A DNA stretch of 64,000 nt from a virus (IMGVR_UViG_2974723051_000001:1-64000); one strand, 5' to 3'. Positions 1 to 19,039 are shown, counted from the first letter of the stretch. Made by a program: numbers and translations. The notes: generated from the sequence alone by a model not told the origin.

Positions 1-9
1 TAAACTAGT

Positions 10-696
10 TTAATCATGTTCAGCATCCTCTATGTTTGAAGGAATGATATTTGAATGTGCGATACTCTTCGTATCTAGTTGTCCCTCTATTACTTTCTCA
101 CGTTGCTTGTTAGAAAGATTACTTACTGCTGCTGCTAGGTCAGCAATCACACCACTATCATTAGCAGTTAAATCAACAGTAAGCTTAGCTGACTCAGGTG
201 CTTTGAGATGGTTCATCAAAGAATCAGCAGCCTTCTGTACTACATATTCATTCTGGCTATTCAGTAGATTAGCCTGTGCTGCAATAGCCTTATGTCGAAC
301 ACTTGCATACATAATATGGTCAGGAATAAGTGTCTGTTCATAAATCAGAGTAACCAACTTATTCTTGTTATATGTACTAGCATACGCTGACATATCCTTA
401 GTGGATACATTCCTTGCAGCCATGGCCTGACATTTAGCCGGAAATACCTTCTGATATGCTCCCATGCTACTCATACCCATAGCTTTGTAGGATACAAACA
501 TCACAGCATTGAAGTAGTCATCTAATTTGAATCGCCCCTCTTGTAGAACTTTCGAATATGTAATTATATTATTCGTATAGACCTCAGCCATTTCAGGGTC
601 AGCAACCATTGCATTAACCTTGTCTACAAATTGCTGGTCAATCTTACTTCTATGCTGTTTAGGTATAGATTCTTTAAGTTCAACTACGGATAACAT
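10..696 (-). CDS. Conserved N4-like protein (N4 gp69-like, terminase-adjacent; possible small terminase subunit)
   Basis: 228 aa; recalled resemblance to the N4-like gp69 family (YSKVLQEGRFKLDDYFNAVMFVSYK, AADSLMNHLKAPE); late-strand orientation. Confidence 0.7.
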   Translation of the reverse strand: MLSVVELKESIPKQHRSKIDQQFVDKVNAMVADPEMAEVYTNNIITYSKVLQEGRFKLDDYFNAVMFVSYKAMGMSSMGAYQKVFPAKCQAMAARNVSTKDMSAYASTYNKNKLVTLIYEQTLIPDHIMYASVRHKAIAAQANLLNSQNEYVVQKAADSLMNHLKAPESAKLTVDLTANDSGVIADLAAAVSNLSNKQREKVIEGQLDTKSIAHSNIIPSNIEDAEHD

Positions 697-736
697 ATTT
701 AGCCTTTAGGGTTGTTATAGATATAAGGATATTACT

Positions 737-925
737 ATGGCTCAAATCAAAATCAAACCAAGCAAGGTAGGAACACTACGTGCAATAGCTCGCAGAGAGG
801 GTGCAATCAACGATGAAGGTAAAATCTCTGTATCTTGGATGAGAAAGAAAATGTCCTCTCCAAGGACTTCCGCAGCGGTTAAGAAAAAGCTTAACTTCGC
901 TCTAAATGCAAGGAAATGGAAATGA
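737..925 (+). CDS. Small basic protein, possibly nucleic-acid binding
   Basis: 62 aa, K/R-rich, AAGGA RBS; C-terminus KKKLNFALNARKWK. Confidence 0.7.
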   Translation: MAQIKIKPSKVGTLRAIARREGAINDEGKISVSWMRKKMSSPRTSAAVKKKLNFALNARKWK

Positions 926-3900
926 AACTAATACCACCATACTCTTTTCTACCCGCCCATACCGGGTACAACTTCAAAGGGAGGGTACGTTACTTTGCTA
1001 ATCACCCACACTTACGTTGATATTAAGGATTATCGCAGAGGTCAGACTGAAGTTTGGATAAATTACAAGGGAATGGAAGTTATGCTCCATTCCCCTAAAA
1101 ATGCACTATTCAACCTAGTGTCTTCCGAATGGGATAATGATATATCTAATGGAAAACTAACCAAATATAAGGATAGACCTGAAATTTAACAAGGAATCAC
1201 GCATGTTACTAATAAATGGGAGAATGACACTTAAAGACCCTAAGCGATTAATGGGGTATTACCTAAATTATAGAAATAACTACTACATTGTGCTCGAAGG
1301 TACTGAAATTCTGTATTGTGCTAAGCCAATCAGAGGCAAATATCCTGTACCTCCTAGAGCAACTTGGGAAATATTTGGACAACAAAGGATGGATAAGAAA
1401 TTGCTAACAAGGATGCTAACATTACTAGGATTACTCCTAATATCTTTCAAAGTTTGCTCAGCAGACTTAATTCTAGGTGGGTTCAGCTACCACATTGCAG
1501 ATAACAACTACTGTTATGCTGGTGAATGTAGACCCCTCAATGAAACCAACAATGCTATTGGTATCCAAGACAGGGATATCAGACTCACTCTCTACAAAAA
1601 TAGCTATTACAAAGATAGCTTTGCTTTGATGTGGGTTCCCTCAGTACCTATAAACCAAGATATGGAACTAGGTCTAAGACTAGGTGCTACTACCGGTTAC
1701 CAATACACACCTGTAGGTTTGAAATATACACCAATAGTTGGAATAGAAATGAAGTTTGACTTCCATTACTTCAAATTGGTTCCTGCTTTCCAAGCACCTA
1801 GTGTGCTATCCATACACATGGAGATACCTCTACCATGACACTTATTAAACCGTTTAGAAAACTTAATCCAAATAATAGTAAAACTAGAAGTCTACGTTAT
1901 GTGGAAATGACTAATGCTTACTTGATTATACAAGATAAGAAATCTATGGCCTTTCGTTATGAAACTAATCAAATCACAAACAGTATGTAGTAGTCCTGAA
2001 ACGGCTATATACACCTCTTTCCCCTTGGCAAAGCTTCACAAAGGTGTTTACTCAATGTGGACTCCCAACTTAGGAATAGATATACACTATGCACCTGATA
2101 CAAACTAAATACGTAAACGCCAATCAGGATATCTTATGGTTTGAATACCTCGATTATTCTTTCGATGGATGGATAGAGGAAAATGTTGACCTCGATAAGT
2201 ATAGAGGTAGCTATTCAATTGGTACACATGACAACTATACAAACATACCGGTAAGACGCCCATGAAACTAGTACCCAACTACAAATCATTTGGTGCTCTT
2301 ACCAATATCTGGTTTTCCTATTGGCCTGAAATCTATGAGTTCGATTCTGACGGTATAAATGAATCTGCATTCCGCAGTGATGACTGGAGTTGGGCTGAGG
2401 ATTTCTTTGAATTAACTCCAATAGAGAGGTCAGACAATGCACCTATTAACTAGCTATATACAAACCAGTGCAAACAGGAATAGTAGTTACCCTTACACAG
2501 CTATTATCTACCGTGAGCAAGTGTACTTTAACTATGACCGCATTAAGCGTGTAGGTAATAAGTGCGGTACAACTTGGGATAAATACTGGAAACCATATGA
2601 CCTTAATACAAACAGCAAAGGGAATACCATTTAGACCATTGAATGCGATTGGTTTGGTAGCTTGCCCTAGTCAATACTATTACATGCTGGGGACTACCAC
2701 AGCAGATTGGATATTTACTTATGACCTTAATACAAAACTACCAAGAGTCTGATACATCTTGGTACTTCCCATATAAAGACATAATCTATACAGAATATGG
2801 TGCAGGCTTAGAAGTAGCTGGATGTTCCAGTTTAGGCTTCTACAAGTTAAGAACTATGTACCGACTAACACCAATGGAGAAACCATGAAGATATATAGAA
2901 TGCGTGTTCATCATCAACATGATGTATATGTCTGTCAGATAAAACCAGATGCTGTATTCGACTATAAGGTTTCAATGAGGAAAGTAAACTATACACATAG
3001 ACCTCATGTAGCCGGTTGGATTGAACAATGCCTTAATAGACCAGAGATATACACGGATGCACTTAACCCAAACAAGAACCCACATAAACCAATCTAACTA
3101 CATTGCCTTTCAATACCTACCTAAACAATTTGCAGTACTAGAAATCTCTCTTGAGATACGTCAGATATATCGCCATGCAAATGCCAATTGGGGTGCACTC
3201 TACTATGATGCAGTCTACATTCCTACGAGGAGAACCAATGCGCCTAAGTAAAACATACTTCGACCCTGAAGCTTCAGATGGTTCCCTTATGTGGGAGTTT
3301 GCTGAAAGCGAATTCTACTTGCTAGAAGGAACAGTTAGAAAGAGATGTTCTATAGCTGAATGGTTCCATGAAGAAGTAGCTAGTGAGGAATTAATACCTT
3401 ATGCAACTAATAAGAACAGATACGTATACAGCTAAACCTAACCAAGAGTTTATACCAGTAAATCTAATTAGATGGGATAGTAGCTATGTTCGTTGGACAT
3501 TAACGGAAGGATTAGAGTTTATATATGAAGTTAGTTAAAACTGAAGTTGATTATGAGCTAGCACTCAACTCAGCAATGGAATTCAGTCATCGAGGCTTTA
3601 CATACACCTTAGATGATGAATGTACCCACTGTTTCTATACACCCTACAAATTATACCTAATTTACTATGAAGCTGATTGAAACAATTATGCGAAGGGCTA
3701 CGAACCCTTACACCGAACCATTGAATAGATTTATGATGAATCGTCCTGAGTTCTCCCTACGTATCAACCATAAGAGAGTATTATTCTACTATGGAATTAA
3801 GAAGAACAGTAATTAACTCTTACAATTCTACCCTACCATTACACTTCAAATGTATCACACCACATGTAATAGGTGGTTACTGTTTAGATGTTCGTGAAAC

Positions 3901-5134
3901 TCCCGGACTAGTACAAAGGGTGGTGATACGTGCGATTAATTAAACTTAATCTTAAAGGTGACTGTTATAGGTCTAACATCTTAAGACCCCATAAGTACTT
4001 TAACCATGAATATGCATTTATACATAACAATAAATGGAGCCAAATCTACTATGACCCTAATCACAATACATCTAGATTTAAAGGATAGATTTGAAGCACA
4101 TTCACCACTAAGACAGCACACAAGAATAACTACAGATTATGTCCTGTACTTAGGTAGACAAGGGAGGATTAGATTCAAATATGAACCTAATAGAAACCAT
4201 TAACTTTAAATCGGATTTCGATGTAACTGTACCTCTAAAACCAGTTGCAGATATGGTATTCAACTATACAGCTAGATATAACTGTAAGAGAGTTTATATA
4301 AGGTATGAAACTAATAAAGATATTCCAAGAAGTTCATAGACTTGTTGATGCCTATGACCCTTGTCCACTAGAGCAACACTTCAGAACTAGTCCTAACCAT
4401 GATGACTATCACATGTTCCAGTTATGGACACCTAACACTTACCTTGGATTCAACTATGAAACTACTTAACACTAAGCCTATGGGTATTGCGACTCCACGT
4501 AACAAGTTAAGACATCACACTAGTTACCGTAACAGGTTTGTACTTATCCATAACTCAAGAGCATTCCATATAGACTATGAAACTAATTAAAACAAACGTA
4601 CACACAGATACCGCCCGTGAATACAGACCAGTAAGACTATGTAAGTACAGTCTGTATACCAATACATATGTGACATGGACTAAACACACAAGAGTAGAAG
4701 TTATCTATGAAGCTAATTAAAACTACTATGATGCAGTACCAAGGGTTTACTGTGTATGAGGATGGTTTAGAGATGGCACGTACTGCTGCACAGTTAGATG
4801 TAGTTATCGAACCAAGTAAAAGTATAAACATAAGGGTAGCTTTTATATATGAGACTAATTAAGACATCTACCTATCCGGTAGTTGTGAGAGGACTGAACC
4901 AAGATAAAGGACTAACTCGCTTTGGGGAAGTAGGAAATACGTACACTATGCGGATAAATAGTATGAGAGTAGTAGTAGATTATGCAAGTAGTACCGGCAG
5001 TAACATCTAAGTATAAGAGTACAACTATTAAGTTTATCTATATGGATGTAATAGTATTTATGGACTTTGAAGAAGGGTATGCATCTATGAGTAACTTTAA
5101 CACTTACTACGTAAGAACCATTAAACTAAGATAG
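922..5134 (+). repeat. Micro-ORF array A: about 26 overlapping short ORFs, most starting M-x-L-[ILV]-x-T
   Basis: Starts read at 922, 995, 1203, 1835, 1959, 2089, 2262, 2437, 2597, 2721, 2885, 3057, 3238, 3401, 3525, 3667, 3791, 3930, 4051, 4181, 4305, 4456, 4577, 4707, 4849, 4982; nearly every start overlaps the previous ORF. Confidence 0.85.
1203..1838 (+). CDS. PagP-like outer-membrane beta-barrel protein (probable internal start at 1389 or 1413) in frame with an upstream micro-ORF
   Basis: Signal peptide MLTLLGLLLISFKVCSA, then GGFSYH...NETNNAIG...LYKNSYYKDS...LGLRLGATTGY, matching the H / (D,N)S layout of PagP-like barrels. Confidence 0.55.
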   Translation: MLLINGRMTLKDPKRLMGYYLNYRNNYYIVLEGTEILYCAKPIRGKYPVPPRATWEIFGQQRMDKKLLTRMLTLLGLLLISFKVCSADLILGGFSYHIADNNYCYAGECRPLNETNNAIGIQDRDIRLTLYKNSYYKDSFALMWVPSVPINQDMELGLRLGATTGYQYTPVGLKYTPIVGIEMKFDFHYFKLVPAFQAPSVLSIHMEIPLP

Positions 5135-5244
5135 TCGGCCCATTAGGGAAATATCTAATTTTAGTAGACATGCAGTACTTACAGGTTTTGAGCGAATAAA
5201 TAGAACATACCCCCCCATCTTTCTCTACTCAGCTATACGTACAG

Positions 5245-5265
5245 ATGCTCCGCATAACTCACGGA
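5245..5265 (+). promoter_or_regulatory. vRNAP (early) hairpin promoter
   Basis: ATGC-TCC-GCAT; template-strand C-GGA-G triloop hairpin as in N4 early promoters; GGA follows. Confidence 0.8.
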
Positions 5266-5301
5266 TATCCAACCACATCACTAATCAACGAGGATTCTCA
5301 C

Positions 5302-5523
5302 ATGAAAGAACTACTAGCAGCACTAACTCTAACTATGTCTACTCTATTCAACGTGTTCACTACTCTACTTGAATGCATCGGTCTACTATCAGCATCAGCT
5401 AAGAATGTATCTCACGTAGTGGAAGATGCATCTAATACATTCCGTATGGAAGAGAAGCTACTTAACGCTGATAAGATTAAGAAACTTAAAGAAGACCTAC
5501 GCAAAAAGGACATCGAACTATAA
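5302..5523 (+). CDS. Early hypothetical protein
   Basis: GAGGA RBS then ATG at 5302, directly after the promoter and followed by a terminator. Confidence 0.75.
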   Translation: MKELLAALTLTMSTLFNVFTTLLECIGLLSASAKNVSHVVEDASNTFRMEEKLLNADKIKKLKEDLRKKDIEL

Positions 5524-5550
5524 GTCACCTTCGGGTGGCTTTACTCTTTT
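5523..5550 (+). terminator. Rho-independent terminator
   Basis: AGTCACC-TTCG-GGTGGCT plus T-rich tail. Confidence 0.7.
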
Positions 5551-5873
5551 ACACATTACACAGACACAACACACTAGATAGTTACTCTTAGTTTAAGTTT
5601 AACTAATCACTATCCTTCGGATAGTTTAACGAACTAATAAACTTGGAGATGTAATGCAACTAATACATACACCTAGAATAGCTGAGGTTAAGTATGAGCT
5701 TAGTTATCTAAATGGGTACTATGTGCATAACTCTTACCGTAAGCAATTACTTTAACTCTATATAGGAGATAGATAGAACTAGAGGTAAAAGCAGGTTAAT
5801 TGTGAGTATAGTTTGTGGTTTCGATAAGCTAAGTCAATCTGTTGTAAAACTATAGATAACCTAAAGGTTATCC

Positions 5874-5890
5874 ATTACTCCGTAATAGGA
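5874..5890 (+). promoter_or_regulatory. Probable vRNAP hairpin promoter
   Basis: ATTAC-TCC-GTAAT upstream of the ORF at 5912. Confidence 0.55.
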
Positions 5891-5911
5891 ATAGATAACA
5901 GGAGATTACTT

Positions 5912-6130
5912 ATGACACACTTAACTGATGAAATATTTGATACAGCTAAAACTTACTCTAACTCTCATCCAGATGGTCAACCTATGCTCGAAGAACTTAA
6001 ACAGTGCATAGCTGATGGTTGGAGTATGTGCATGTACATTGACTATCTATCTCAATACTTTACTTACAACAGTATCCAACCAATCATTGAACCAATATGG
6101 GATATGGAACTAACAGGAGCAAACTCATGA
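5912..6130 (+). CDS. Early hypothetical protein
   Basis: 72 aa, AGGAG RBS. Confidence 0.7.
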   Translation: MTHLTDEIFDTAKTYSNSHPDGQPMLEELKQCIADGWSMCMYIDYLSQYFTYNSIQPIIEPIWDMELTGANS

Positions 6131-6372
6131 AACACATATTAATACTACTACTTCTATTATCACCACTAGCACAAGCTAAGACATATAAATATGGTGTTGC
6201 ATGTCATTGGGATACAGGAATCAAAGTGTACTTCACAAATGAAATAGCAGGACTAAGTACTACATCTACTGTGTACATCTTACGTGATGCAGTAGAGACA
6301 CATGATGACAGCAAGATAATCAAACAACTATATGTACCCGCATTTAAGTGCTACATAGAACAATTCAATTAA
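6127..6372 (+). CDS. Secreted/periplasmic hypothetical protein
   Basis: Signal peptide MKHILILLLLLSPLAQA; ATGA overlap. Confidence 0.7.
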   Translation: MKHILILLLLLSPLAQAKTYKYGVACHWDTGIKVYFTNEIAGLSTTSTVYILRDAVETHDDSKIIKQLYVPAFKCYIEQFN

Positions 6373-6400
6373 GACTACTTCGGTAGTCTTTTTTCTTTTC
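6371..6400 (+). terminator. Rho-independent terminator
   Basis: AAGACTAC-TTCG-GTAGTCTT plus T-tract. Confidence 0.85.
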
Positions 6401-6410
6401 AGGGGTACAC

Positions 6411-8277
6411 ATGAAATTATGCAAAGTAAAACTAATACCACATTTTGATGACATATATAGATTTCGTTATAACTCGAATGCTTACTGTCAATGTACAAGA
6501 CTAGGAATGTGGTAATGCTAATACTCAGAACACTTGATTCACATGGTACATGGTCATGGGAATATAACGATGAAGTCTACTGCTTTAACTATGTATATGG
6601 GGTGTGGTAATGACACTAATTAAACTCAGAAAGAATAGACGCAATAACTATGAGTTAGTCTCTGATATCTATTACTACGAGAATAATGGTTATGTCGGTT
6701 ATTACTTATACCATCCAGATAACGGGATATGGTGATGACACTATTTAAACTCAAACGTAATAAATACGATAACTACGAGATAATCTCAGATACTTATAAA
6801 TCTTCTGATAAGTTTTATGTAAGTTTTTATCTCTTTCATCCATTGAAAGGAATATGGTGATGCTACTCATTCAAACATATTACGAACTAAAACATACAGA
6901 TGCAGATGAGTATTGGTTCTCATATAAAACTTATGATTCTGTATTTATACAAAATAAGTGTATGTATCACTATCCAGAGTTAGCACCTGATGTAGCTACA
7001 TGGATATACAACAAAGAAATAATACCAACACCTAGGAGAACCAATGGAATTAATACATAACTATGATAGTGGTGCTAAGACTTATATATGGCTAAGCTAC
7101 CAAGATAGAAGTTACAACTTCCCAAATCCTAAGAATTACCCTCATTATTCTAAATACCAACTTAGTTATTATGAAAGCTGTAAGGTTACTTGGAATAATT
7201 GGGTAAATACTGGAATATTAACAGTCAAACAGAGGGAACCAAATGATATTACTTAATACATACGATAGTGCTTCATATGCACTTATATGGATTAAATATG
7301 GTGACATGGAATATTGTATGAAGAATACAGATTCTAATAGACGTGCTACTCCTTGTCCTTTAGCAGAGTCACGTGTAGGTGAACCTCTATGGTATAGCTG
7401 GTTACACACGGGTATTGAAGCTGGTGGAATAGTTATCAAACAGAGGCCAAATCAATGATAGTAGTTACAACATACCTAAGTAGTTACGACAAACTACATA
7501 AACCAAATGCTTGTGTACATTGGGATTACAAAGGTAAAGGTTATGGCTTATGTCATAACAGTAATACAAAATTATTCGTTAGTACTCCTACAATTAATAA
7601 ACTATTAAAGGATGATGAACATTATGCGCCTATTAAAGACATATTACATAATTCATAATCCAGCATCACTACGAGTACTAGTAGATGCTAATAACCTAGC
7701 TAATTTTTACTTTGGAGAAGATGCAGAAGGTTTTGTATATCACACAGGTGATAATCATGCTGTGTCTTATTTTCAATCATGCGTGCAGTGTGGTGAATAT
7801 AAAAGGAAACTAAGATGAAACTACTAGAAGTATATTTCACACCTGCTGGTACTGTGCGTGTTATTAAACTTGAACCTATGAATTACATGATAGGTAGATT
7901 AGGTTTACAACATTGGGGTAGTGCCAATTGGAAGAATTATAAGAGAGTAACTAAATGAAACTATATAGAATTAAATCTAATCATTGGGGATTCTTAGAAT
8001 TTATAACTGAGTCTAGTGTCTGGTGGAATAACTCAGATGGTAGCTTTGTGAAATACTCATAGGGGATAATATGTTACTTATGCCTATATTTGGTGCAGCG
8101 TATAAACCAGAGAACTATGTATTACACTTCCAGTATAAGTTTAAACAGTTCACTATTGATGTTGACTTTGCTGATAGGGAAATGACTAAGAAACATATAG
8201 AGATATATGCATCTAAACCAACTAGAAACTGGAACAGAGGTAAAGTAAGAATACCTAAAGGCTTTAAATATATTTAG
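6411..8277 (+). repeat. Micro-ORF array B (12 ORFs)
   Basis: Starts at 6411 MKLCKV, 6515 MLILRT, 6610 MTLIKL, 6735 MTLFKL, 6860 MLLIQTY, 7044 MELIHNY, 7243 MILLNTY, 7455 MIVVTTY, 7624 MRLLKTY, 7815 MKLLEVY, 7955 MKLYRI, 8071 MLLMPI. Confidence 0.85.
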
Positions 8278-8278
8278 T

Positions 8279-8302
8279 GTATTGCTCCGCAATACTCGTG
8301 GA
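8279..8302 (+). promoter_or_regulatory. vRNAP hairpin promoter
   Basis: GTATTGC-TCC-GCAATAC 7-bp stem; GGA at the same spacing as at 5245. Confidence 0.85.
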
Positions 8303-8325
8303 AATAAATTATTGGAGAAAATCTT

Positions 8326-8502
8326 ATGTTTACTGAAGCTATTCAACAAGCCAGAACAGCAGTACAGAAAGGCCTAACACATAAACAATATGTGGGAGAA
8401 GCCAAGCAATCTACACTAATTGAATATGTTGAAACCATCATACTTGATGAAGATGCATATAACCGCTTAACAACAATCATGAGTAAGGAGTATCTAAAAT
8501 GA
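8326..8502 (+). CDS. Early hypothetical protein
   Basis: GGAG RBS, MFTEAIQQ..., 58 aa after the promoter. Confidence 0.65.
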   Translation: MFTEAIQQARTAVQKGLTHKQYVGEAKQSTLIEYVETIILDEDAYNRLTTIMSKEYLK

Positions 8503-8795
8503 GAACTCTAGCATTACTTATCTTAAGCTTTCTAGCTGTAATTATCTGTCAAGAAGTACTACCTTACAACTACAGAAATATTGCCTCATTGCTTGCTGTA
8601 CTTGGGTTATTATGGGTATTTCACGATGTACTAGGTTATTGGGCTAAATTTGTATTTGCAGTAATAGTCCTGATACTTGGAGTACTGATATCAATAATCA
8701 CATTCCCATTCTACATGGCTGGCAGAGCATTCCAGAAAGGTCAAATAGCAGCAATCAAAGAAACACAACCAAAGGAAAATAAACATGATTTCTAA
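8499..8795 (+). CDS. Membrane protein
   Basis: Three hydrophobic segments; AAGGAG RBS. Confidence 0.75.
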   Translation: MRTLALLILSFLAVIICQEVLPYNYRNIASLLAVLGLLWVFHDVLGYWAKFVFAVIVLILGVLISIITFPFYMAGRAFQKGQIAAIKETQPKENKHDF

Positions 8796-8904
8796 GAAGG
8801 TAGAACGAGCACTACGACAAGCTAACGCATTAGGTGGACAGCGTGAACCAAAGAAAGAAATGAACCAATGTCCTTATAAGCGAAAGCATTCTAACTAATC
8901 AATT

Positions 8905-8934
8905 GAGCATCCATTTGGATGCTCTTTTTCTTTT
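8905..8934 (+). terminator. Rho-independent terminator
   Basis: GAGCATCC-ATTT-GGATGCTC plus T-tract. Confidence 0.85.
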
Positions 8935-8943
8935 GGAGGCTCT

Positions 8944-11180
8944 ATGAAGCTACTACAGGGCTACAAACCAGCTAATCTCACACATAGTCATCAACGTAGA
9001 TATGTGTTTGGTGACCGGACATATATACAAAGTACTAAACGTTCTAAGCGTTTAAAACCTTCTTTTTATAATGCTGCATCATTCTACGAAAGAATAATGG
9101 AGGGTAAGCACATTGCAGTTACTAGAGACGTATGAACGTGTTCAATTTACAAATGGTATAGCATTTGTAACCAACGTACAGGTATTCAAGTGCATTCCAG
9201 ATAAGGGTATTAAGGAATCCAAAGTACCTATCAATCACTTCTTACCATGGCTACGTACCGGTAAATACCGGAGGTTATCTAAATGCAATTAATATCAACA
9301 TTTGTATGGGAAGATGACATTCACGGAAGACCTAAACTTAACTATAGAAATGAGGGTGTTTACCTCAATAGTATAGTTGGTCTTAAGCGCAGAATGGGTG
9401 GTAGACCATACAAAATACATAGAACACGCAAATACCTTTCTAGAAGCTAACTCGAACCAAAACAGTAAAAAACTCTATATGTAGTCTAGTACCTAACTAG
9501 TATATTTGAGTGTATTTCTATGGTTTAAGTTAGTTTAATTTTTAATCAAATTGGATAAAATTTAATCATGAGACTAATAACTGGCTATAGATATAACGAA
9601 CGATTGACCATGTATAAGTACAAACCAACTGGCTACAAAGCTAGTGGATACATGCATGACATTGACCCACCATTTAACAGAGTATTTGGAAAGATACCTT
9701 TAAGCTACATGGATGGTGCTAAGAAGATGTGGAAGCGAGGTGTACGTGTATGCGACTAGTACGAATACAGTCATGGGATGAAGAGTACTACGATGAAGTA
9801 GAACAATACTCATATGGTATTGGCTCTTTGTGCTACCCAAATATACGTATGTTCACTATGAGACAAATAACGGCTAGAGGTATAACTACTGTTGTTCATA
9901 GTACCTGTGAAGAAGCATTGATTACCTTTATAGATGGTGAAGCATTACATCTAAGGAGTGCGATGTGAAAATAAGTTACACATATTGTAGTCCCTACTCA
10001 GGCTATAAAGGTGGAATGGTATTTGAGTATGGAATAGATGTTTATATACATACCTATTCTAATTGTACTACTAAGAAAGCTTATTGGACTGTAGATGAGT
10101 TTCGCAAACGGGTAGCCAAAGATACATGGATAAGGGTGGAGAGATATGCAGCTACTAGTAATGCGTAAGTTCCCTGAGTATCTATGTTTCCCTCAATCAC
10201 ATGTAACTGTATACAGGCATATGTTGGTAGGTGTTATACCTGAATTATTTGGGAGAAGTAATAACTACTGTTACCTACCAGTAATGAGTGAACTAATGGA
10301 ACATACGGGTAATAGTTATGGTTACAACGGTGGATACAATAAGTCTAAACCAGTTAATCCTAGGCATGATACATGGTTACTTAAACTTAAACGATGGTAT
10401 GCGGAGAGAGTGCAATGAGACTCATTAGAACATTTGGTTCCAAGCATACGTTACATAATGGTGGTTCATTATTTAGGTATCGATATAAATATTATTTATA
10501 TGGGGTTAGAAGTAATTTACGACATATTACTTGGTTAACATCAGAAGATACTGCTAACCGTTTCTCTAGGGGTGTATGGGTTTACTTCAGTAAGGAAACC
10601 AATGAAATTGTACAGCGTATTCAAGATTAAATATCAGTGGGGACATTACATATCTGCTGATATAGGTATATTTTACATCGGTATATATGGGATGCATCAT
10701 TCATCTATGTCCGATGAGACATTACATAACAAACAATTACGTGGTCATGTGAAGACCGTAAGGAGACTACAATATGAGAGTAATAAGCACATATGCCAAC
10801 CCAGAAGCGGTGAGGCTGTTTAACGCTGCATTCCGATATAAAGATACTGTGTATCGAGCTAGAACCAATGTACTACATGAATATGTAGATATAAGTGTAC
10901 CTAGATTCTTAGTAGCTGTTGAGTCAGGTAACTTAGTACCTTCAAAGGACAGAACCAAAAAACTGAGTATGTTCTTATGATGCTGCTGGCTACTTATAAC
11001 CATACGCTATATGAACGGCAGGGTAAGGTTTACCCTATATTTACCTATGATATGCCATACACCCTCGAAAAGATGTATGGGAGCTATGGGATTGCTAACT
11101 TGTCCCTTAGTCGTGATTTTATAGCCCGTGATATTAAGTATGGCAGGATGCTCCGCATCACACGTGGAACAACTATCTAA
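8944..11180 (+). repeat. Micro-ORF array C (11 ORFs)
   Basis: Starts at 8944 MKLLQGY, 9113 (TTG) MQLLETY, 9283 MQLISTF, 9568 MRLITGY, 9750 MRLVRI, 9965 MKISYTY, 10146 MQLLVM, 10415 MRLIRTF, 10602 MKLYSVF, 10774 MRVISTY, 10980 MLLATY. Confidence 0.85.
11147..11168 (+). promoter_or_regulatory. vRNAP hairpin promoter
   Basis: GATGC-TCC-GCATC then ACACGT-GGA; same architecture as 5245 and 8279. Confidence 0.85.
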
Positions 11181-11190
11181 GGAACCAATC

Positions 11191-11403
11191 ATGAGATACG
11201 TAATAACTACAATCCTAGCTCTATTACTTGCTGCTGCATCAGTAGTATTCGTTAAAGCGGTGAAAGCTGAGATGGCCGTAGTTCACGCTGAAGGGCAATG
11301 TATCGCCAGATACATTGAACAAGGCGTAGAACGGAAGGACATCAAAGTTACACGTGGAAGCTGTGAAGTAATTATATATGGTGAAGCAACTTTAAGGGAC
11401 TAG
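11191..11403 (+). CDS. Small membrane-anchored protein
   Basis: AAGGA RBS; N-terminal hydrophobic helix; C..R..GVERKDI..C motif. Confidence 0.7.
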   Translation: MRYVITTILALLLAAASVVFVKAVKAEMAVVHAEGQCIARYIEQGVERKDIKVTRGSCEVIIYGEATLRD

Positions 11404-11426
11404 CCTTCGGCTAGTTGGGTGAACCA

Positions 11427-11997
11427 ATGAGACTGTTAGTCACTTATTCAACTCGGGACTATCAAACTAAGTTAGGTGCAATCTGGTTTGAGCACAACTA
11501 TTGTGAAATGTTTAGGTCTAATCACAAGCCGTTAGCAATGGCACATAATCATACAGCTTACTTAGACCATGATATTACAGCCAGAAGTGTCTTACCTGTT
11601 AGGGAACTGAACTAATGCGATTAGTACTTACCAACTGTTATGGACCAGAATCTCTTCCGAATAATGAGGTATCTTTTGTGTTTACCTCTGTTGTGTACTG
11701 GACTTGGAAAGATGTTCCAATGTGTAAAGCACACATGGATGACATTACAGAACACATACGGGAAATTTTAGAAGACGAGTTAATACTCGTAAGGGAGTTA
11801 ACCCGATGCGATTAATACTTACTCGTTGTTATGACACCCATACCTTAGAAGATGGTGAAGTGTCATTTATATATCATTCAATTCTGCATTGGACTTGGTT
11901 AGATGCTCCAATACTAGCGAACCCTACTAGTCACTTTGTTACTGCTCACCTAAAATCAATAGTGGAAGGTGAATTACTACTTAGCAGAGAAATGTGA
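11427..11997 (+). repeat. Micro-ORF array D (3 ORFs)
   Basis: 11427 MRLLVTY, 11615 MRLVLT, 11806 MRLILT; the last two are clear paralogs. Confidence 0.85.
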
Positions 11998-12056
11998 CAT
12001 ATATCACAAAAAATTCTTCGGTCACTCAACCTCCGGAGCACTCTGATAGTTCATTT

Positions 12057-12079
12057 TGGACCTCCGGTCCATCCTTGGA
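12057..12079 (+). promoter_or_regulatory. vRNAP hairpin promoter upstream of the gp2-like/RNAP II cluster
   Basis: TGGACC-TCC-GGTCCA then TCCTT-GGA; same loop-to-GGA spacing. Confidence 0.75.
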
Positions 12080-12119
12080 ATAATCCAAACTTTAATTTAA
12101 TTTATTAGGAGACTCAATT

Positions 12120-12359
12120 ATGGGCATTCAAACTGAAACTCAAGCACCTGCAACTAACGCTAAAGAAACTAAGAAAGCTGAAGGTTGGCTAAACCTAGTC
12201 GTCAAAGCTAAAGACGGTAACTACCACTCAGTGAAGTGTTACATTCCTCTTGAATCAACTAACGATGTTCATCGTGCAATGTTGAACAAAGAAGATGGTA
12301 CTGAATTTGAAATCATCGGTACTGTGAAGCACAACGTCACAAAAGAAATCGAATTGTAA
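12120..12359 (+). CDS. ssDNA-binding RNAP II cofactor (N4 gp2/Drc-like)
   Basis: KKAEGWLNL...YIPLE resembles N4 gp2 (KAQYWLNI...GIPLD); lies upstream of RNAP1. Confidence 0.65.
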   Translation: MGIQTETQAPATNAKETKKAEGWLNLVVKAKDGNYHSVKCYIPLESTNDVHRAMLNKEDGTEFEIIGTVKHNVTKEIEL

Positions 12360-12364
12360 TACCA

Positions 12365-12396
12365 AGGCCAATCCGAAAGGGTTGGCCTCACTTTTT
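12365..12396 (+). terminator. Terminator
   Basis: AGGCCAATCC-GAAA-GGGTTGGCCT plus T-tract. Confidence 0.75.
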
Positions 12397-12408
12397 GGAG
12401 AGAGTGAA

Positions 12409-12675
12409 ATGGCAGTATCAAACGAATATCTACAACAGTTGCCTTATGCGACTGACTACGTGTTGAACCATCTGATTCCAGAGACAGGTTGCATCAAAAT
12501 GTCTACAGAATCTTTAATGGTGGCTCAGATAGCCTACAACACTATCGAAGATGAGGTTATGGATGACATAGCCAATAATGTTCCACCAATTCTGGTGGTA
12601 GCAAAAATCGCTAATGCTACTAAAAATGCGCAAGTAGTAGAAGCAACAGTAAAACAAATCATTGAAACAAAATAG
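12409..12675 (+). CDS. Hypothetical protein
   Basis: GGAG RBS, ATG at 12409. Confidence 0.65.
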   Translation: MAVSNEYLQQLPYATDYVLNHLIPETGCIKMSTESLMVAQIAYNTIEDEVMDDIANNVPPILVVAKIANATKNAQVVEATVKQIIETK

Positions 12676-12684
12676 GAAATCGAC

Positions 12685-12945
12685 ATGTCCGATACAAACG
12701 AAGCTACAAAAGTACTTATCCGTGTTAAACCAAAGAACAGTGCAGAAGAACTAGATGCAATGTTTACTGAGTTCGACGCAGCAGAAGAACTGAAAGACAA
12801 AACAATGCTGACAGTCCCATCTACTAACCGTCTGGTTACAGATGAAGGTCACCTATTGGTTGTGCTACCTAAGCGCTTGGACTTCGCAATTGCATACGAA
12901 CCAGATGAGTTCGTGGTACTTGCAGAGAACGCCGCTACTGCTTAA
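12685..12945 (+). CDS. Hypothetical protein
   Basis: 86 aa, AGGA RBS, followed by a terminator at 12956-12982. Confidence 0.7.
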   Translation: MSDTNEATKVLIRVKPKNSAEELDAMFTEFDAAEELKDKTMLTVPSTNRLVTDEGHLLVVLPKRLDFAIAYEPDEFVVLAENAATA

Positions 12946-12993
12946 TCAACTAAATGGGGAGCCTTGTGCTCCCCTATTTTTATTGAGGCGTGT

Positions 12994-13215
12994 ATGAAAC
13001 TTTGTAAAACATATCACGAACAAGACGAAATACCTACTGTCTGGTTCGAATGTGGAGGAGTTACCTCAGACTGTATGGATGCAGGTTTTTACGTAGAATT
13101 TCTACGAGATGGTACATCAGATTGGGTGACCGTATATGGTCCCACAATAAATGACCAAAGTAAGTTTGAACGTGTCACTAAAGACATAACCTTAACTACC
13201 TTAAGCAAAATATAG
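12994..13215 (+). CDS. Micro-ORF family member
   Basis: MKLCKTY...VWFECGG; GAGG RBS. Confidence 0.65.
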   Translation: MKLCKTYHEQDEIPTVWFECGGVTSDCMDAGFYVEFLRDGTSDWVTVYGPTINDQSKFERVTKDITLTTLSKI

Positions 13216-13224
13216 GACAAACCA

Positions 13225-14178
13225 ATGACCACTAGAATGTTACCACGTGATTACCAAATGATGATGGAAACCAAGTACTCCAAATCAAACATCCGTAAAT
13301 ATATCCTTGATGATATTCAAGAGTGTCAGGAACTTATGGATAAGCTCCATATATGTGCGCTACAAGTGGAGAAATGGTGTCAAGAAGACCACTATGAATC
13401 CAAGAAGGAATCACTAGCTGTATTGCTAGATGAAGAGTTCAGTATCAAAGACTTGTTGGTTGATATTATGAGTATGGTTCTGACTCAGAGCTATCGTATG
13501 GAAATCACAAGTGCAGTTGGTTTAGTAGCTGGCTTTATGCCATGGGAAGACTACCGAATCAAAATCAAACGTGCAGCAGAATTGCTATTCCATTTAGCTG
13601 CTTGTGACATCATCGATATGGCTCCAGCATTTATCAGTGAAACCAATACAGTACTAATTAGTAATAAGTACTCAATTGGTGGTGATACTGCTAAGTATAT
13701 TGAAATGAGTAAGTTCACACCACCAATGGTATGTGTACCTGAACCAGTAAAGTCTACTCGTGAATCCGGTTACTTAACTAAGCAACAGTTCGCAATACTG
13801 AAAGGTAAACACCAGCACAACTATCCAGTTAACCTTGCATCAATCAATAACTTTAACTCTATTCCATTATCACTAGACCATGAGTTCTTACGTATGGTTG
13901 AAGATGAGTTAGAGACTGATACAGAAACAGAAATGGAGATTGATAAACGACGTAAAGCTTTCGATAAGCTACGCCTAGAAACCTACGATGTATGTTTAGA
14001 TATCATTCGTGCTGGTAATGAGTTCTATGAGACTCACTTTTGGTGTGGACGAGGCAGAACATATACCCGTGGTTATCACATCAACTCTCAGGGTAACAGC
14101 TACCGTAAAGCTATGGTAAATTACGCAGAGGCGGCTGACATTAATGAGGATATTGAAGATTGGAAACAATACTTCTAA
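13225..14178 (+). CDS. RNA polymerase II subunit 1 (RNAP1, N4 gp15-like)
   Basis: PPMVCVP and RGRTYTRGYHINSQGNSYRKA (T7-family RGRxY...QG motif). Confidence 0.93.
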   Translation: MTTRMLPRDYQMMMETKYSKSNIRKYILDDIQECQELMDKLHICALQVEKWCQEDHYESKKESLAVLLDEEFSIKDLLVDIMSMVLTQSYRMEITSAVGLVAGFMPWEDYRIKIKRAAELLFHLAACDIIDMAPAFISETNTVLISNKYSIGGDTAKYIEMSKFTPPMVCVPEPVKSTRESGYLTKQQFAILKGKHQHNYPVNLASINNFNSIPLSLDHEFLRMVEDELETDTETEMEIDKRRKAFDKLRLETYDVCLDIIRAGNEFYETHFWCGRGRTYTRGYHINSQGNSYRKAMVNYAEAADINEDIEDWKQYF

Positions 14179-14783
14179 AGACCTGTTCTAAGTGTGGTGA
14201 GTATAAAGAACTCACCCACTATCATAAATATCCTAAAGGTGTTTATGGTGTGCGGGCAGAATGCAAGGGATGTATTACAGCTCGTAGGCATTCTAAAGAA
14301 GGCACAGTGAAACAAATGTATCTTAGGCAACGAGCTAGTTCTAAAAAGCGGGGCTATACACTACCTGATTATACAGAACAGGAACTTAAACAATGGTTAT
14401 ATGACCAACCTAAATTCCATGAAATGTATTCTATTTGGGTAGCATCAGGCTTTAAAAAAGAACTTAAACCTTCTGTAGACCGTCTAGATGATTATGCTCC
14501 TTATACCTTATCGGGAATCCAATTAGTGACTTTCCAAACCAATAGAGATAATTATGAGCAGCATCGTAAAGAAGGTAAGTCAACCAAAGGTCTAATGACA
14601 GCAGTAGATAAATTGACGTTAGATGGCGAAATGATTAAACGCTATCACTCTATATCAGCAGCTTCAAGAGACAATAATAATTTGCACATTGGTACAATTC
14701 AATCGGTGTGTGCAGGCAAAACTAAGACTTGTGGTGGATTTAAGTGGCGTTATTCACTTGAACCAAATAATAACAAACATTAA
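14160..14783 (+). CDS. Free-standing homing endonuclease (Zn finger, His-Me-like core, NUMOD1)
   Basis: CSKC/CKGC; KPSVDRLDDYAPYTLSGIQLVT; C-terminal YHSISAAS...IQSVC...GGFKWRY. Confidence 0.8.
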   Translation: METILLKTCSKCGEYKELTHYHKYPKGVYGVRAECKGCITARRHSKEGTVKQMYLRQRASSKKRGYTLPDYTEQELKQWLYDQPKFHEMYSIWVASGFKKELKPSVDRLDDYAPYTLSGIQLVTFQTNRDNYEQHRKEGKSTKGLMTAVDKLTLDGEMIKRYHSISAASRDNNNLHIGTIQSVCAGKTKTCGGFKWRYSLEPNNNKH

Positions 14784-14805
14784 CTAAAACTCAGCGAGAA
14801 ATACT

Positions 14806-15245
14806 ATGAAAACTTTTACACCAATCGAATACATCTGTATTCACATTGCTAACTCTTTCGGTAAAGACAAACTACTGTTCGAAGACAGAATAGAGTGGGT
14901 TAAGCAAAACGGTAAACAACTACGTAAACTAGCAGGTCAAGCAGATGACAAAGCACAGTATCTACGTGGTGTACTTGAACTTGAACGTATCCTTAATGGT
15001 CAGCGTACTACTAATATGCCAATTGGTTTAGATGCAACTGCATCTGGCCTACAGATTCTATCTGTACTATCTGGCTGTATGGTTACTGCTAGCCATGTAG
15101 GTCTAGTTGACCCTAATAAACGTTGTGATGCATATACAGCGTGTGGTGATACTATGAACTTCTACTTACCAGAAGATAAGCAGATTATCCTTACTGGTAC
15201 TCCAAAAGCAGGTCAATACACTCGTAAAGACCTAAAGCAACCCTT
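14806..15245 (+). CDS. RNA polymerase II subunit 2 (RNAP2), exon 1
   Basis: GKDKLLFEDRIEW; motif A GLDATASGLQ; start of motif B RKDLKQP. Confidence 0.92.
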
Positions 15246-16112
15246 AGAACATTGAGGCTTTATGCAGCGATGCATATCGAATAACTACGTGAATTCATGG
15301 GAACCCCTAACGTTAAGCCGAGGGCAATCATGAGCCAAGTTGACAAGAAGAATTGTAAAAGTAATACTTGCATAAAAATGTGCAAAGGAAACTTTTATGG
15401 AAACTTCACAGTGTAACAAATGTAATCAAATCAAGCCTGTATCTGAATTTCCTAAGATTACTCATAATCAATTTAGAAGTTCAAAAGGAAGTTCTGGAAT
15501 CTACTCATACTGTAAAGAATGCAGAAATGCTAAAGCAAGAGAGTGGCGAAAGAATAATCCTAATTACAAAGCATCAGGTAAATTAAGTAGTTACCCTAAA
15601 GAAGATAAACTATTGCTATCTGCAATACGCAGTAGAATATCTGATTGTAAGGGTAGAATACGTAGGGCTAATCCGGCCTGTGTAAACTTATTTGATTTGG
15701 ATACCGATTACATGTATCAACTCTTTAAACAACAAGAAGGTAAATGTGCATTATCAGGTGTTGATTTATCACTTACTAAGAACGATTTGAATGTCTTATC
15801 CATAGATAAAATCGAACCTAGCAAAGGGTACATCAAAGGTAATGTTCAATGGCTTTCATGGGCAACTAACCGAGCTAAAGGTGAAATGCCCCAACAAGAG
15901 TTTATTGAGTTATGTCAAAAGGTGCAGAGACTATCGAAAGCATAACCGAAAGGTGAAGAAGCGAGTAGAGTAGGTTCAAGTGAACCGAAGTGCGTAGCAT
16001 CTCTGACTAGAGATGATGATATAGTCCGACCTCATATGAAAGTATGAGCAGTTTGTAGGTAGAGAAACTATAAACGGGATTAGATGTAACGAATCTAATT
16101 TGAACATAAGTG
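15246..16112 (+). mobile_element. Group I intron in RNAP2
   Basis: P1 CCUU/GAGG with U.G at the 5' splice site; core CAGAGACTA (about 15925) and GATATAGTCC (about 16018); terminal G; splicing restores KQPFMTHFY. Confidence 0.88.
15397..15945 (+). CDS. Intron-encoded homing endonuclease (His-Me finger-like)
   Basis: CNKC/CKEC Zn finger; QEGKCALSG...SIDKIEPSKGYIKGNVQW...NRAKG. Confidence 0.85.
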   Translation: METSQCNKCNQIKPVSEFPKITHNQFRSSKGSSGIYSYCKECRNAKAREWRKNNPNYKASGKLSSYPKEDKLLLSAIRSRISDCKGRIRRANPACVNLFDLDTDYMYQLFKQQEGKCALSGVDLSLTKNDLNVLSIDKIEPSKGYIKGNVQWLSWATNRAKGEMPQQEFIELCQKVQRLSKA

Positions 16113-16902
16113 TATGACACATTTTTATTTCTCTAAAGCCGAACCAAAGAAAGTATTTGGGGATAATACAGTTGAGCTACTAGCGTTCTATAGCGCTGTA
16201 AATGATATGGCTCCGGGAGCTAATGCACTCATGGATGATATATTTGGTGCAATGAAACGTGATACAGCTACAGAGTACAAATGGACTCTACCTGATGGTC
16301 ATACTGCATTTACTCGTGTGATGGTTACTAAAGACCGTACTGTGGAACTAGAAGAACTGAAGAATGCTTCAGGTAAAGCTTCTACATTCACTCACCGTAT
16401 GGAAGTAAATGAACCAAACGATAAAGATGTATCACTTGTAGCTAACGTTACTCACTCATGTGATGGATTCGTTGTACGTGAAATGGGTGGCCGTATGAAC
16501 CATAACAAACATCGTCTACTTAAGACTCTTGATGTAACTCGTGGTTGTCGTGTAACCAATCGTGACAAGATGGTATCTATCTTTGAGGTTGATGCATTGC
16601 TGTCGGGTAAACAGGACTATGACGACAATACGCTAGGTCTATTGGCAGAAGTATGTGAGTCAGTATTAGAGAACCCATCTGCACCTATGAAGTCGGTACA
16701 TGATGAGTTCAAAACTATGGCTCCTTACTGTAACCAAATGCGTAGATACTATACTGATATACTTGCTCAAATGGCTGAATCCAACATGATTCAAGACATT
16801 CTACGTGAGTTGTACCATAACCCTAATCTGGTTTATCAGAAAGAAGGTGACGGTATGGCACTAGCAGAAGCAATCAGAGGTAGCAACTACGCTATCTGTT
16901 AA
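16113..16902 (+). CDS. RNAP2 exon 2
   Basis: MTHFYFSKAEPK (rest of motif B), WTLPDG, ANVTHSCDG, motif C SVHDEF. Confidence 0.92.
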
Positions 16903-16908
16903 CTAACT

Positions 16909-16938
16909 AAGGCACTCTTCGGAGTGTCTTTATTTTTT
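16909..16938 (+). terminator. Terminator
   Basis: AAGGCACTC-TTCG-GAGTGTCTT plus T-tract. Confidence 0.8.
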
Positions 16939-16949
16939 GGAGTATAAGT

Positions 16950-17780: not shown

Positions 17781-17843
17781 GAGTAGTAGCTACTTACCTC
17801 TCTGCACTTCAGTATCGAGATGTAAAGAGTGGTGTACTAACTC

Positions 17844-17858
17844 GCATCCTCCGGATGC
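17844..17858 (+). promoter_or_regulatory. Possible hairpin promoter
   Basis: GCATCC-TCC-GGATGC. Confidence 0.5.
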
Positions 17859-18989: not shown

Positions 18990-19039
18990 AATTTTACCTT
19001 TTTGTTTAGAACACCCTAATAATATCCAAGGAGTTTCAA

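Follow-up and report, generated by a model that had tools for sequence, protein, structure and literature searches.

What is encoded by the dense succession of short open reading frames (ORFs) that fills positions 922-11997 of the virus record IMGVR_UViG_2974723051_000001, and why do so many of these ORFs begin with the same few residues? The window analyzed here comprises bases 1-64000 of this 74,325-bp record, and the phage genome matches that of the published Vibrio phage pVco-5. An initial annotation, made by a model from the sequence alone, had described the region as about 50 coupled micro-ORFs of 30-90 amino acids (aa) that tile five stretches of the plus strand, share an M-x-L-[ILV]-x-T(Y) start, overlap the preceding stop codon and carry divergent bodies rich in Tyr and Trp. 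Our preferred answer, which we consider probable though well short of assured, is that the array comprises about 50 genuine, mostly overlapping microprotein genes. They would form a fast-evolving, clade-limited family in which a shared N-terminal heptad serves as a β-strand and whole units are gained and lost.

A tiled array of small genes with a shared start

We catalogued 50 plus-strand ORFs in 922-11997, which are 31-90 aa long apart from one of 211 aa (median 55; 27 of the 50 are shorter than 60 aa). Together they occupy 76% of the plus strand, and all five stretches are tiled. Overlap with the previous ORF was found at 39 of 49 junctions, by 1 or 4 nucleotides (nt) in 13 cases and by 10-50 nt in 26, the commonest overlap being 14 nt. 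Tyr makes up 8.4% of the residues in array ORFs versus 3.7% in the genome's ORFs of at least 150 aa, and Trp 1.9% versus 0.9%, an enrichment of about twofold in each case. The initial description was therefore accurate as to the number of units, their size (with the single 211-aa exception), their overlaps and their divergent, aromatic bodies. Its range of 922-11997 holds for the array itself but not for the family, which extends to members at 12994-13215, 36034-36207 and 36204-36392.

The sole universal element of the family is an N-terminal heptad with the consensus M-[KRQTH]-L-[ILV]-x-T-[YF]. Residue 3 is Leu in 44 of the 50 catalogued ORFs and residue 4 is Ile, Leu or Val in 40; Thr occupies residue 6 in 26, and at residue 7 there are 16 ORFs with Tyr and 6 with Phe. 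An exact M-x-L-[ILV] start is present in 36 and the longer M-x-L-[ILV]-x-[TN] in 23, so that the common start claimed for almost all units was borne out. The heptad also heads ORFs that have no upstream overlap (8944, 9283, 9568, 11427, 12994 and 36034).

Chance expectation was estimated for ATG-initiated ORFs of at least 25 aa on the plus strand of 900-12000, with 200 dinucleotide-preserving shuffles, a check that had been suggested together with the initial annotation. M-x-L-[ILV] begins 38 of the 147 plus-strand ATG-ORFs of the region, whereas the shuffles yielded 1.04 ± 1.03 (maximum 4), far below the observed count; M-x-L-[ILV]-x-[TN] was found 23 times in the region versus 0.14 ± 0.36 in shuffles. 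The minus strand of the region holds only 34 such ORFs, none of which matches M-x-L-[ILV], and in the rest of the genome (13301-74325) the matches number 15 of 392 on the plus strand and 7 of 429 on the minus strand. A Shine-Dalgarno (SD) duplex of -4 kcal/mol or better precedes 36 of the 50 catalogued starts but only 37 of the region's 273 other ATGs (Mann-Whitney p 1.4e-17).

The ORFs also carry the marks of purifying selection. The same kind of ORF occurs in phages JA-1, phi 1, PhiImVa-1 and BUCT194 and in a VCO139-like IMG/VR record. Orthologues in PhiImVa-1 and BUCT194 keep their lengths and give a pooled ratio of nonsynonymous to synonymous substitution rates (dN/dS) of 0.31; the 26 pairs behind this value include a few that are not true members. 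In 16 curated pairs, dN/dS is 0.19 in codons 2-7 versus 0.38 in the rest, and dN alone 0.054 in this head versus 0.195. Variation closer to home was available from related contigs in two DNA runs of one study, covering 24 of 30 bins in each run; no RNA run was listed as containing the stretch, a result that carries no information on its expression. Relative to these contigs, the ORF at 10977 (o10977; ORFs are named here by their start positions) has 19 single-nucleotide polymorphisms, 11 of them at codon position 3, and keeps its heptad; 8 are synonymous in frame, whereas the other frames would give 2-3. Small indels listed against the contigs, under partial coverage, are limited to 5274-5597 and 12013, outside family ORFs. 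A dN/dS near 1 with frame-breaking indels, the pattern named beforehand as speaking against genes, was not what we found: dN/dS was about 0.3 and the frames were kept.

Selection on the heptad can be examined separately. Residues 2-7 are identical between orthologues at 86 of 96 positions (90%) versus 660 of 928 (71%) elsewhere. Leu3 is written with all six of its codons (CTA 24, TTA 11, CTG 4, CTT 2, CTC 2, TTG 1), and residue 4 uses nine codons, among which ATA (14) and ATT (8) are frequent; codon 2 is AAA, AAG or AGA in the consensus, and codon 6 is ACA in 17 ORFs. The use of six Leu codons, the orthologue identity and the low dN of the head argue that the heptad is selected as protein, and its constraint acts mainly at that level.

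Might there nevertheless be no genes here, only chance ORFs in AT-rich DNA? Database searches would allow it, since only 7 of 53 members have a cross-phage BLAST match, Pfam matched 0 of 52 members, and a word-indexed protein search with o7044 returned o7044 alone. The shuffle tests and SD sites speak against this, as do the strand asymmetry of ATG-ORFs (147 versus 34), the purifying selection with kept frames, the confident fold described below and the matches of some members to PHROG families. We regard the chance-ORF explanation as scarcely credible and already contradicted by the data, and the combined sequence evidence argues that the array ORFs are genuine coding genes.

Subfamilies, predicted fold and turnover of units

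Two subfamilies could be aligned, type A (15 paralogues; alignment A2) and type B (18 paralogues; alignment A3). Block 1 of the array (1835-5134) contains the type A units, which are ~45-54 aa long, end in R-V-x-F-x-Y-E-x-N and can be aligned over their full length, motif included; their representative is o4577 (4577-4720, plus strand, 47 aa). The type B members of this block start at 2089, 2262, 2437, 2721, 3057 and 3238. Both types have conserved C-termini, and these are by-products of dual coding with the SD site, ATG and first codons of the next gene. At type A junctions, TAT GAA ACT AAT TAA (Y-E-T-N-stop) overlaps the next gene's ATG AAA CTA ATT AAA (M-K-L-I-K), and the R-V just before Y-E-T-N is encoded by AGAGT, an SD-like element. 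Correspondingly, the type B C-termini R-R-T-N and Q-R-E-P-N carry AGGAG or GAGGG. Overlapping genes can in this way yield spurious "conserved C-terminal motifs", a caution for annotators of small proteins.

An AlphaFold2 model of o4577, built with the 15 aligned type A paralogues, reached a predicted local distance difference test (pLDDT) score of 91.6 and has four strands, at residues 3-10, 19-23, 30-34 and 38-44. The heptad forms β1 of the model (pLDDT about 93) and the C-terminal R-V-E-V-I-Y forms β4. The type A heptad is accordingly modelled as the first strand of a small four-stranded antiparallel sheet whose last strand is R-V-x-F-x-Y-E. In BFVD the model matched the phi 1 protein A0A0B5HE27 (template modelling (TM) score 0.77, probability 1.00, 40% identity) and A0A240EWK1 (TM score 0.79), with a weak match to R9R4T2 of JA-1; by these comparisons, related vibriophages have small proteins that share the fold predicted for type A. 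A Foldseek search of the same model against the PDB gave no match with E<1. The type A profile, compared with 1.84 billion representative sequences, retrieved 16 proteins, nearly all of them its own paralogues or near-identical variants from a close relative, together with one PhiImVa-1 ORF. The ESM Atlas held no usable match by features for o4577 or o7044, the structure matches of o7044 resting on a model of pLDDT 0.46, and a PDB profile search with the type B alignment A3 returned nothing. A β-propeller blade or NHL-like repeat was considered and rejected: A2 matched designed "Pizza6" propellers only as the sum of six 1-3-bit matches.

Beyond the heptad, the bodies form 7 BLAST pairs at E<0.01 versus 0-2 in shuffles. 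The three strongest body paralogue pairs are all adjacent in the array, which points to tandem duplication. An origin of bodies by frame switching was set aside, as one marginal hit (E 0.005) was left after removing overlapping neighbours and no pairs of body DNA reached E<0.01. Isoelectric points (pI) are bimodal among 53 members, 30 being basic and 15 acidic over a pI range of 4.1-11.0, which speaks for varied targets and against one common activity, nucleic-acid binding for example.

Comparison of the early regions of PhiImVa-1 and BUCT194 resolved 13 collinear blocks; the two phages differ there mostly in whole units that one has and the other lacks. Eight of the 12 block boundaries, read by eye against the annotations, fall at most 20 nt from a gene start. 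At three boundaries, homology extends as far as the ATG on the upstream side and starts at the ATG on the downstream side, which places the exchange inside the 13-21 nt of heptad DNA in these three cases. The BUCT194 gene at 15002 has first five codons that look chimeric between the two neighbouring units of PhiImVa-1. The same gene has a TTG start in PhiImVa-1 (3171) and an ATG start in BUCT194 (15002).

In this phage's own lineage, four of six joints in the related contigs remove whole units. The joint 7956->8051 removes o7955; 9965->10416 removes units 10016 and 10146 (9966-10415), the missing stretch being bounded by one unit's stop and a following unit's start; and 11579->11806 removes one copy of the 11615/11806 pair and ends exactly at the ATG of 11806. 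A further joint, 5667->5759, removes most of o5654. We conclude from these alignments that the array probably changes by whole units, with breakpoints at start codons and several crossovers inside motif DNA. The proposal in the initial annotation that the array expanded by duplication or recombination at the conserved junction gains support from the adjacent paralogues and from start-codon breakpoints in both lineages.

We counted family members across genomes by a common rule, namely an M-x-L-[ILV] start, an SD site and a length of 28-125 aa on the early strand of the stretch examined in each genome. This genome has 35, BUCT194 24 + 6, PhiImVa-1 23, and JA-1 and phi 1 13 each; N4, LUZ7, SBP1, D517 and 1.238.B have 1-3 each, the last three being also N4-like phages of Vibrio hosts. 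The strict seven-residue pattern had no occurrence in N4 (708 ATG-ORFs, 1-45000), LUZ7 (344 ATG-ORFs, 55000-74901), SBP1 or D517, and a single one in 1.238.B, on the noncoding strand. By these counts the motif family is limited to a single clade of N4-like vibriophages, whose genomes have 13-35 members each. Because other Vibrio N4-likes lack the motif, the heptad is inherited within one phage clade and not imposed by host translation. The set in this phage is the largest seen, and those of its relatives are of the same order.

Database searches returned few relatives. Searches by tblastn with o11615, o7044 and P0002 (a protein of a close relative) gave no match; o7044 and P0002 found no relative in IMG/VR, and P0002 found none among metagenome contigs. 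A scan of IMG/VR with a junction 18-mer gave 35 loci, about the number expected by chance, and the family was carried only by the VCO139-like record (L036). Nine PHROG families were matched by the 52 members scanned, the largest being phrog_11073 with four members, and o7044 and o7243 each give a full-length match to phrog_21645 (E 2.7e-36 and 5.7e-34). Phrog_21645, phrog_11073, phrog_25853 and phrog_10915 are unannotated and take in only a few array members each, and no library family unites the array.

Explanations for the shared heptad

We suggest that the heptad is kept because it nucleates the β-fold of these tiny proteins, and that the shared heptad DNA would double as microhomology for the clean duplication, deletion and swapping of units. 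The proteins themselves may be early binders of host or defence components, individually dispensable and with diverse targets, as the bimodal charge and the unrelated bodies suggest. Judged by the type A model, a structural role as β1 would be the simplest reason for conservation of the heptad and more economical than docking. The effector library with a docking strand that the initial annotation envisaged would be plausible as a function.

Several observations weigh against our preferred reading, in which microprotein genes share a structural strand. The fold is confident in one subfamily only, as the type B model (18 paralogues, o7044) reached a pLDDT of 61.6 and is unusable. When the type A and type B alignments are compared by hhalign, only columns 1-9 align, with a probability of 19%, and the 135 motif ORFs of six genomes, compared without their first eight residues, split into 98 BLAST clusters, of which 71 contain a single sequence; for proteins this short, profile methods have little power to detect homology. 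Two clean unit indels lie at genes without the heptad, so breakpoints at starts could reflect the survival of intact genes only, and the related contigs are low-depth (3-6) pieces from a single study. Synonymous change is itself reduced in codons 2-7 (dS 0.29 versus 0.52 in the rest), and A-ending codons are preferred there (Thr6, 17 of 26 versus 0.33 in bodies, p 0.001; Leu3, p 0.04). Some constraint at the level of RNA or of the overlap therefore acts on codons 2-7 as well, weaker than that on the protein. Both features are to be expected wherever the head shares bases with the upstream gene and lies within the initiation region.

One alternative makes the heptad a common docking or assembly tag: its strand would bind one shared partner by β-strand addition (a host hub, chaperone, protease, phage protein or other family members) while the body gives specificity. 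The heptad alone is common to bodies that are otherwise unlike, and orthologues differ less in it than elsewhere; with hydrophobic residues at both L3 and I4, the two strand faces would be buried, as fits an interface, and a 47-aa four-stranded sheet would have exposed edge strands. Yet the sole confident model makes the heptad an integral strand of the sheet for which no partner is needed, and charge varies across the whole pI range, and we consider such a tag possible but unlikely. A more elaborate version, a self-shuffling combinatorial library, would take each unit as one small β-module, its conserved first and last strands being assembly strands that pair mutually or dock on a host hub, with the first-strand DNA as the crossover site for duplicating, deleting and swapping units; we hold this to be decidedly unlikely. 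If true, it would be an analogue, embedded in coding sequence, of integron or promoter early stem-loop (PeSL) cassettes without a dedicated recombinase. More generally, a shared strand that acts as a docking or assembly element or as a crossover site would represent a new principle of cassette organization.

The heptad might instead mark a slot rather than the cargo. It would then belong to a coupling and recombination junction (SD, ATG and the first five or six codons) that is copied or homogenized by recombination, with bodies of independent origin inserted behind it and no monophyletic family. Crossovers in motif DNA in three unit indels, one giving the chimeric first five codons, would follow from such a junction, as would the joints at start codons in this phage's own lineage, the lowered dS of codons 2-7, the 98 clusters of bodies and the direct-repeat families of 1-13500, which are mostly junctions of 19-29 nt. 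Junction DNA identity is modest, however, as only 8 genome sites match the 17-mer consensus with at most 2 mismatches, and codon choice at Leu3 and residue 4 is varied. Genes after terminators or gaps also begin with the motif, as do the distant members at 12994, 36034 and 36204, type A paralogy runs the full length including the motif, and there is no trace of frame-switched or DNA-level reuse of bodies; we rate this explanation as quite unlikely. A translation signal, in which the first codons are kept mainly at the level of messenger RNA or nascent peptide for efficient initiation or reinitiation on packed, overlapping genes, strikes us as very improbable. It would account for the 39 overlapping junctions, the A-rich and A-ending codons (AAA at codon 2, ACA at Thr6), the lowered dS of the head and the CTA-AT that supplies a +1-frame TAA to end upstream ORFs. 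But six Leu codons, and Ile, Leu or Val at residue 4, point to amino-acid selection; A/T-richness would permit Lys, Asn, Ile or Tyr at residue 3, where 44 of 50 have Leu; and the motif is missing in other Vibrio N4-likes and rare in the rest of its own genome.

Host-takeover and anti-defence proteins are found chiefly in the early regions of phages, and most of them are ORFans that resist grouping. Across this vibriophage clade, 13-35 or more such genes per genome bear a seven-residue signature, and many of these are unannotated in some records (such as JA-1). Through the signature, a ready-made set of proteins diversified by nature can be screened in Vibrio for toxicity, anti-defence activity and interactions, and the array is a clean case for the birth, duplication and loss of microprotein genes. 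Related phages are used or proposed for Vibrio control in aquaculture, and it is of practical interest that a third of their gene count is of unassigned function.

Known counterparts, genomic setting and layout

The array belongs to a known kind, the ORFan arrays of phage early regions, and consists here of a clade-specific heptad family with dual-coded junctions. The initial annotation knew of no described expansion of this sort. That stands for the heptad family, of which the literature searched, including the available text of PMC5764924, PMC3670811 and PMC7650795, gave no description, although supplementary files outside the search might list paralogues. It does not stand for small-gene expansion as such, since a 29-gene cluster at the equivalent position has been described in phage LUZ7 (PMC3715699, PMC9163698, as far as their available text goes). 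In those excerpts, LUZ7 gp87-gp115 are 29 small tandem genes of 40-75 aa, mostly with 4-nt overlaps and without database matches (PMC3715699), transcribed from the Watson strand in mid-infection (PMC9163698). As there described, the cluster resembles the array in being tandem, co-oriented, tightly packed, beside a gene like N4 gp69 and of unassigned function. The LUZ7 units, however, share an internal Y.F..IL..KY.KE and a C-terminal W...V in place of the N-terminal heptad, and their cluster is confined to one end, whereas array members reach the RNAPII genes and beyond. We saw no sequence relationship between LUZ7 units and the array family, which therefore does not belong to the LUZ7 family. 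In the LUZ7 record (NC_013691.1, locus positions 13699-19346) gp87-gp115 are visibly paralogous: Y.F..IL..KY.KE recurs around residues 10-25, W...W...V closes the units, and MKPE opens four successive units of 65 aa; the part of the 2010 description at hand mentions only the missing database similarity.

Two other systems invite comparison. According to the available text of Arbiol et al. 2010 (PMC2839356), the hyperplastic regions of T4-type phages hold small non-essential ORFans that are exchanged by recombination between short repeats flanking each gene, and PeSLs are intergenic cassettes of a sigma-70 promoter and a stem-loop. Insofar as that text describes them, these regions share with the array small ORFan genes and insertion, deletion or replacement between close relatives. 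The repeated element is intergenic there but lies within coding sequence (SD, ATG and first codons) in the array, which, with 39 of 49 junctions overlapping and sigma-70-like sites depleted, lacks the PeSL cassette layout. The early region of N4 (gp1-gp14) likewise lies upstream of the RNAPII genes and carries small plus-strand genes mostly of unassigned function; it has three hairpin promoters of the virion RNA polymerase (RNAP) in the available text of PMC4496689, and the array region has three hairpin repeats of matching anatomy. N4, however, has 14 early genes of 52-161 aa with unrelated N-termini, as against some 50 with a common heptad. Phage HH109 (PMC9040624), with 49 genes, was considered and proved different from this kind of array.

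Gene content places the array in the classical early region of an N4-like Vibrio phage, ahead of the RNAPII genes. As in Schitoviridae early regions, it lies on the early/middle strand between a gp69-like gene (10-696, minus strand; phrog_2109), whose BUCT194 counterpart in the same place is annotated as similar to pVco5_001, and the RNAPII genes. A PHROG scan located the N4-like RNAP1 (13225-14178), RNAP2 (16114-16902), a Dda-like helicase (36385-37539) and DNA polymerase (38004-40622). Replication genes showed weak DNA matches to Vibrio N4-likes (72-79% over short stretches), and megablast of the array DNA against the phage collection gave no match. The structure search had also returned A0A1W6JUS7, a 47-aa protein of Vibrio phage pVco-5 in BFVD that is 100% identical to o4577. 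The pVco-5 announcement reports 74,325 bp, 38% G+C and 125 ORFs, 116 of them hypothetical, and mentions no gene family (PMC5764924); given this match, the micro-ORFs are probably already annotated there as hypothetical proteins.

Three hairpin repeats punctuate the plus strand of the array region, at 5246-5265, 8283-8302 and 11149-11168, compared with 0.01 expected by chance. Each consists of a 5-bp stem and a TCC loop (GATGC-TCC-GCATC-type) followed by AC.C.YGGA, and the gene after each lacks the heptad and usually encodes a membrane protein. Virion-RNAP early promoters of N4 and LUZ7 are short-stem hairpins, as described in the available text of PMC4496689 and PMC9163698. The repeats fit the N4-type anatomy (stem, 3-nt loop, GC-rich centre, few copies, early strand) and, by analogy, are candidate early promoters; their exact pattern was not found in JA-1, PhiImVa-1, BUCT194 or the VCO139-like record. 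Terminator-like hairpins number only five on the plus strand of 1-13500; two that have a T-run, at 6371-6390 and 8905-8924, lie 20 nt before blocks 3 and 4, respectively. Sigma-70-like sites are depleted in 1-13500 (21 versus 55.7 ± 7.5 in shuffles), which is consistent with transcription by a phage polymerase. Rfam and tandem-repeat scans of the array region were blank or trivial.

Following the array along the plus strand, a non-family 62-aa gene (737-925; phrog_25798) ends in the first motif ORF, MKLIPPY (922-1020, 32 aa), which overlaps its stop. The 211-aa ORF (1203-1838), which starts MLLING, is in the catalogue of 50, yet is no microprotein: its residues 25-188 match the PagP-like phrog_3600 (lipid A acylation, E 1.8e-49), with no match in Pfam. 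A micro-ORF-like start of 62 residues runs in frame into an internal Met (residue 63) and a signal-peptide-like segment. From this arrangement the ORF may be a fusion, or its true start may be internal. Block 1 (1835-5134) then holds 22 overlapping micro-ORFs, starting at 1835, 1959, 2089, 2262, 2437, 2597, 2721, 2885, 3057, 3238 and 3401 and continuing at 3525, 3667, 3791, 4051, 4181, 4305, 4456, 4577, 4707, 4849 and 4982. The first hairpin repeat is followed by the gene of a non-family membrane protein (phrog_22423). A lone motif ORF, MQLIHTP (5654-5755, plus strand, 33 aa), is the one mostly absent in a related contig.

Block 3 (6411-8277, plus strand) comprises 12 micro-ORFs starting at 6411, 6515, 6610, 6735, 6860, 7044, 7243, 7455, 7624, 7815, 7955 and 8071. 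Four are short units of 31-41 aa that end in G-[IVM]-W and have the stop-start overlaps TGGTAATG/TGGTGATG, and 6610/6735 and 7044/7243 are adjacent paralogue pairs. After the second hairpin repeat come three genes without the motif (8326-8502, 8499-8795 and 8785-8898). The 10 plus-strand ORFs of block 4 (8944-11180; starts 8944, 9283, 9568, 9750, 10016, 10146, 10415, 10602, 10774 and 10977) are longer, at 50-90 aa, and mainly basic, and gaps between units are more frequent. The third hairpin repeat precedes a gene at ~11191-11403 for a protein with a signal or transmembrane segment. Block 5 (11427-11997, plus strand) has three ORFs, at 11427, 11615 and 11806, the last two forming a tandem paralogue pair (39% identity, E 3e-15).

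Outside the array, the member MKLCKTY (12994-13215, plus strand, 73 aa) follows a terminator and lies just upstream of the RNAP1 gene. MELLKTY (36034-36207, 57 aa) and MNLLPTY (36204-36392, 62 aa), also on the plus strand, come after a terminator-like hairpin and run into the beginning of the helicase gene, which they overlap. In phi 1, likewise, a family member (22344-22535) lies directly upstream of, and overlaps, a Dda-like helicase gene. Helicase-adjacent members in both phages indicate that some members hold a conserved position outside the early array.

In JA-1 (NC_021540.1), heptad ORFs of 33-70 aa without an annotated coding sequence were seen at 289-501, 498-599, 603-776, 2491-2628, 2615-2767, 7371-7550, 7551-7763, 8103-8300, 8305-8445, 8578-8769 and 10078-10284. 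These ORFs are missing from the annotation table, and the record probably lists too few genes in its early region. The JA-1 terminal motif GATAGGGGATAG was also sought in the window and discarded, since its 5 matches, versus 3.7 expected, are no more than chance.

Some features of the neighbouring sequence deserve mention. No transfer RNA genes were found in the window; JA-1, PhiImVa-1 and BUCT194 carry one to four. The RNAP2 match spans only profile positions 138-401 of 401, and endonuclease VII/HNH-like genes (phrog_1035) lie at 14160-14783 and 15397-15945 on the plus strand, between RNAP1 and RNAP2; as read from this arrangement, RNAP2 may be encoded by a split gene or by one that homing endonucleases interrupt. 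Between the array and RNAP1, a 79-aa protein encoded at 12120-12359 (plus strand), with a strong terminator after it, matches phrog_18082 (E 5e-41) and, weakly, the "toxin" family phrog_6271 (E 6e-4). Its gene sits where PhiImVa-1 annotates a single-stranded DNA-binding RNAP cofactor.

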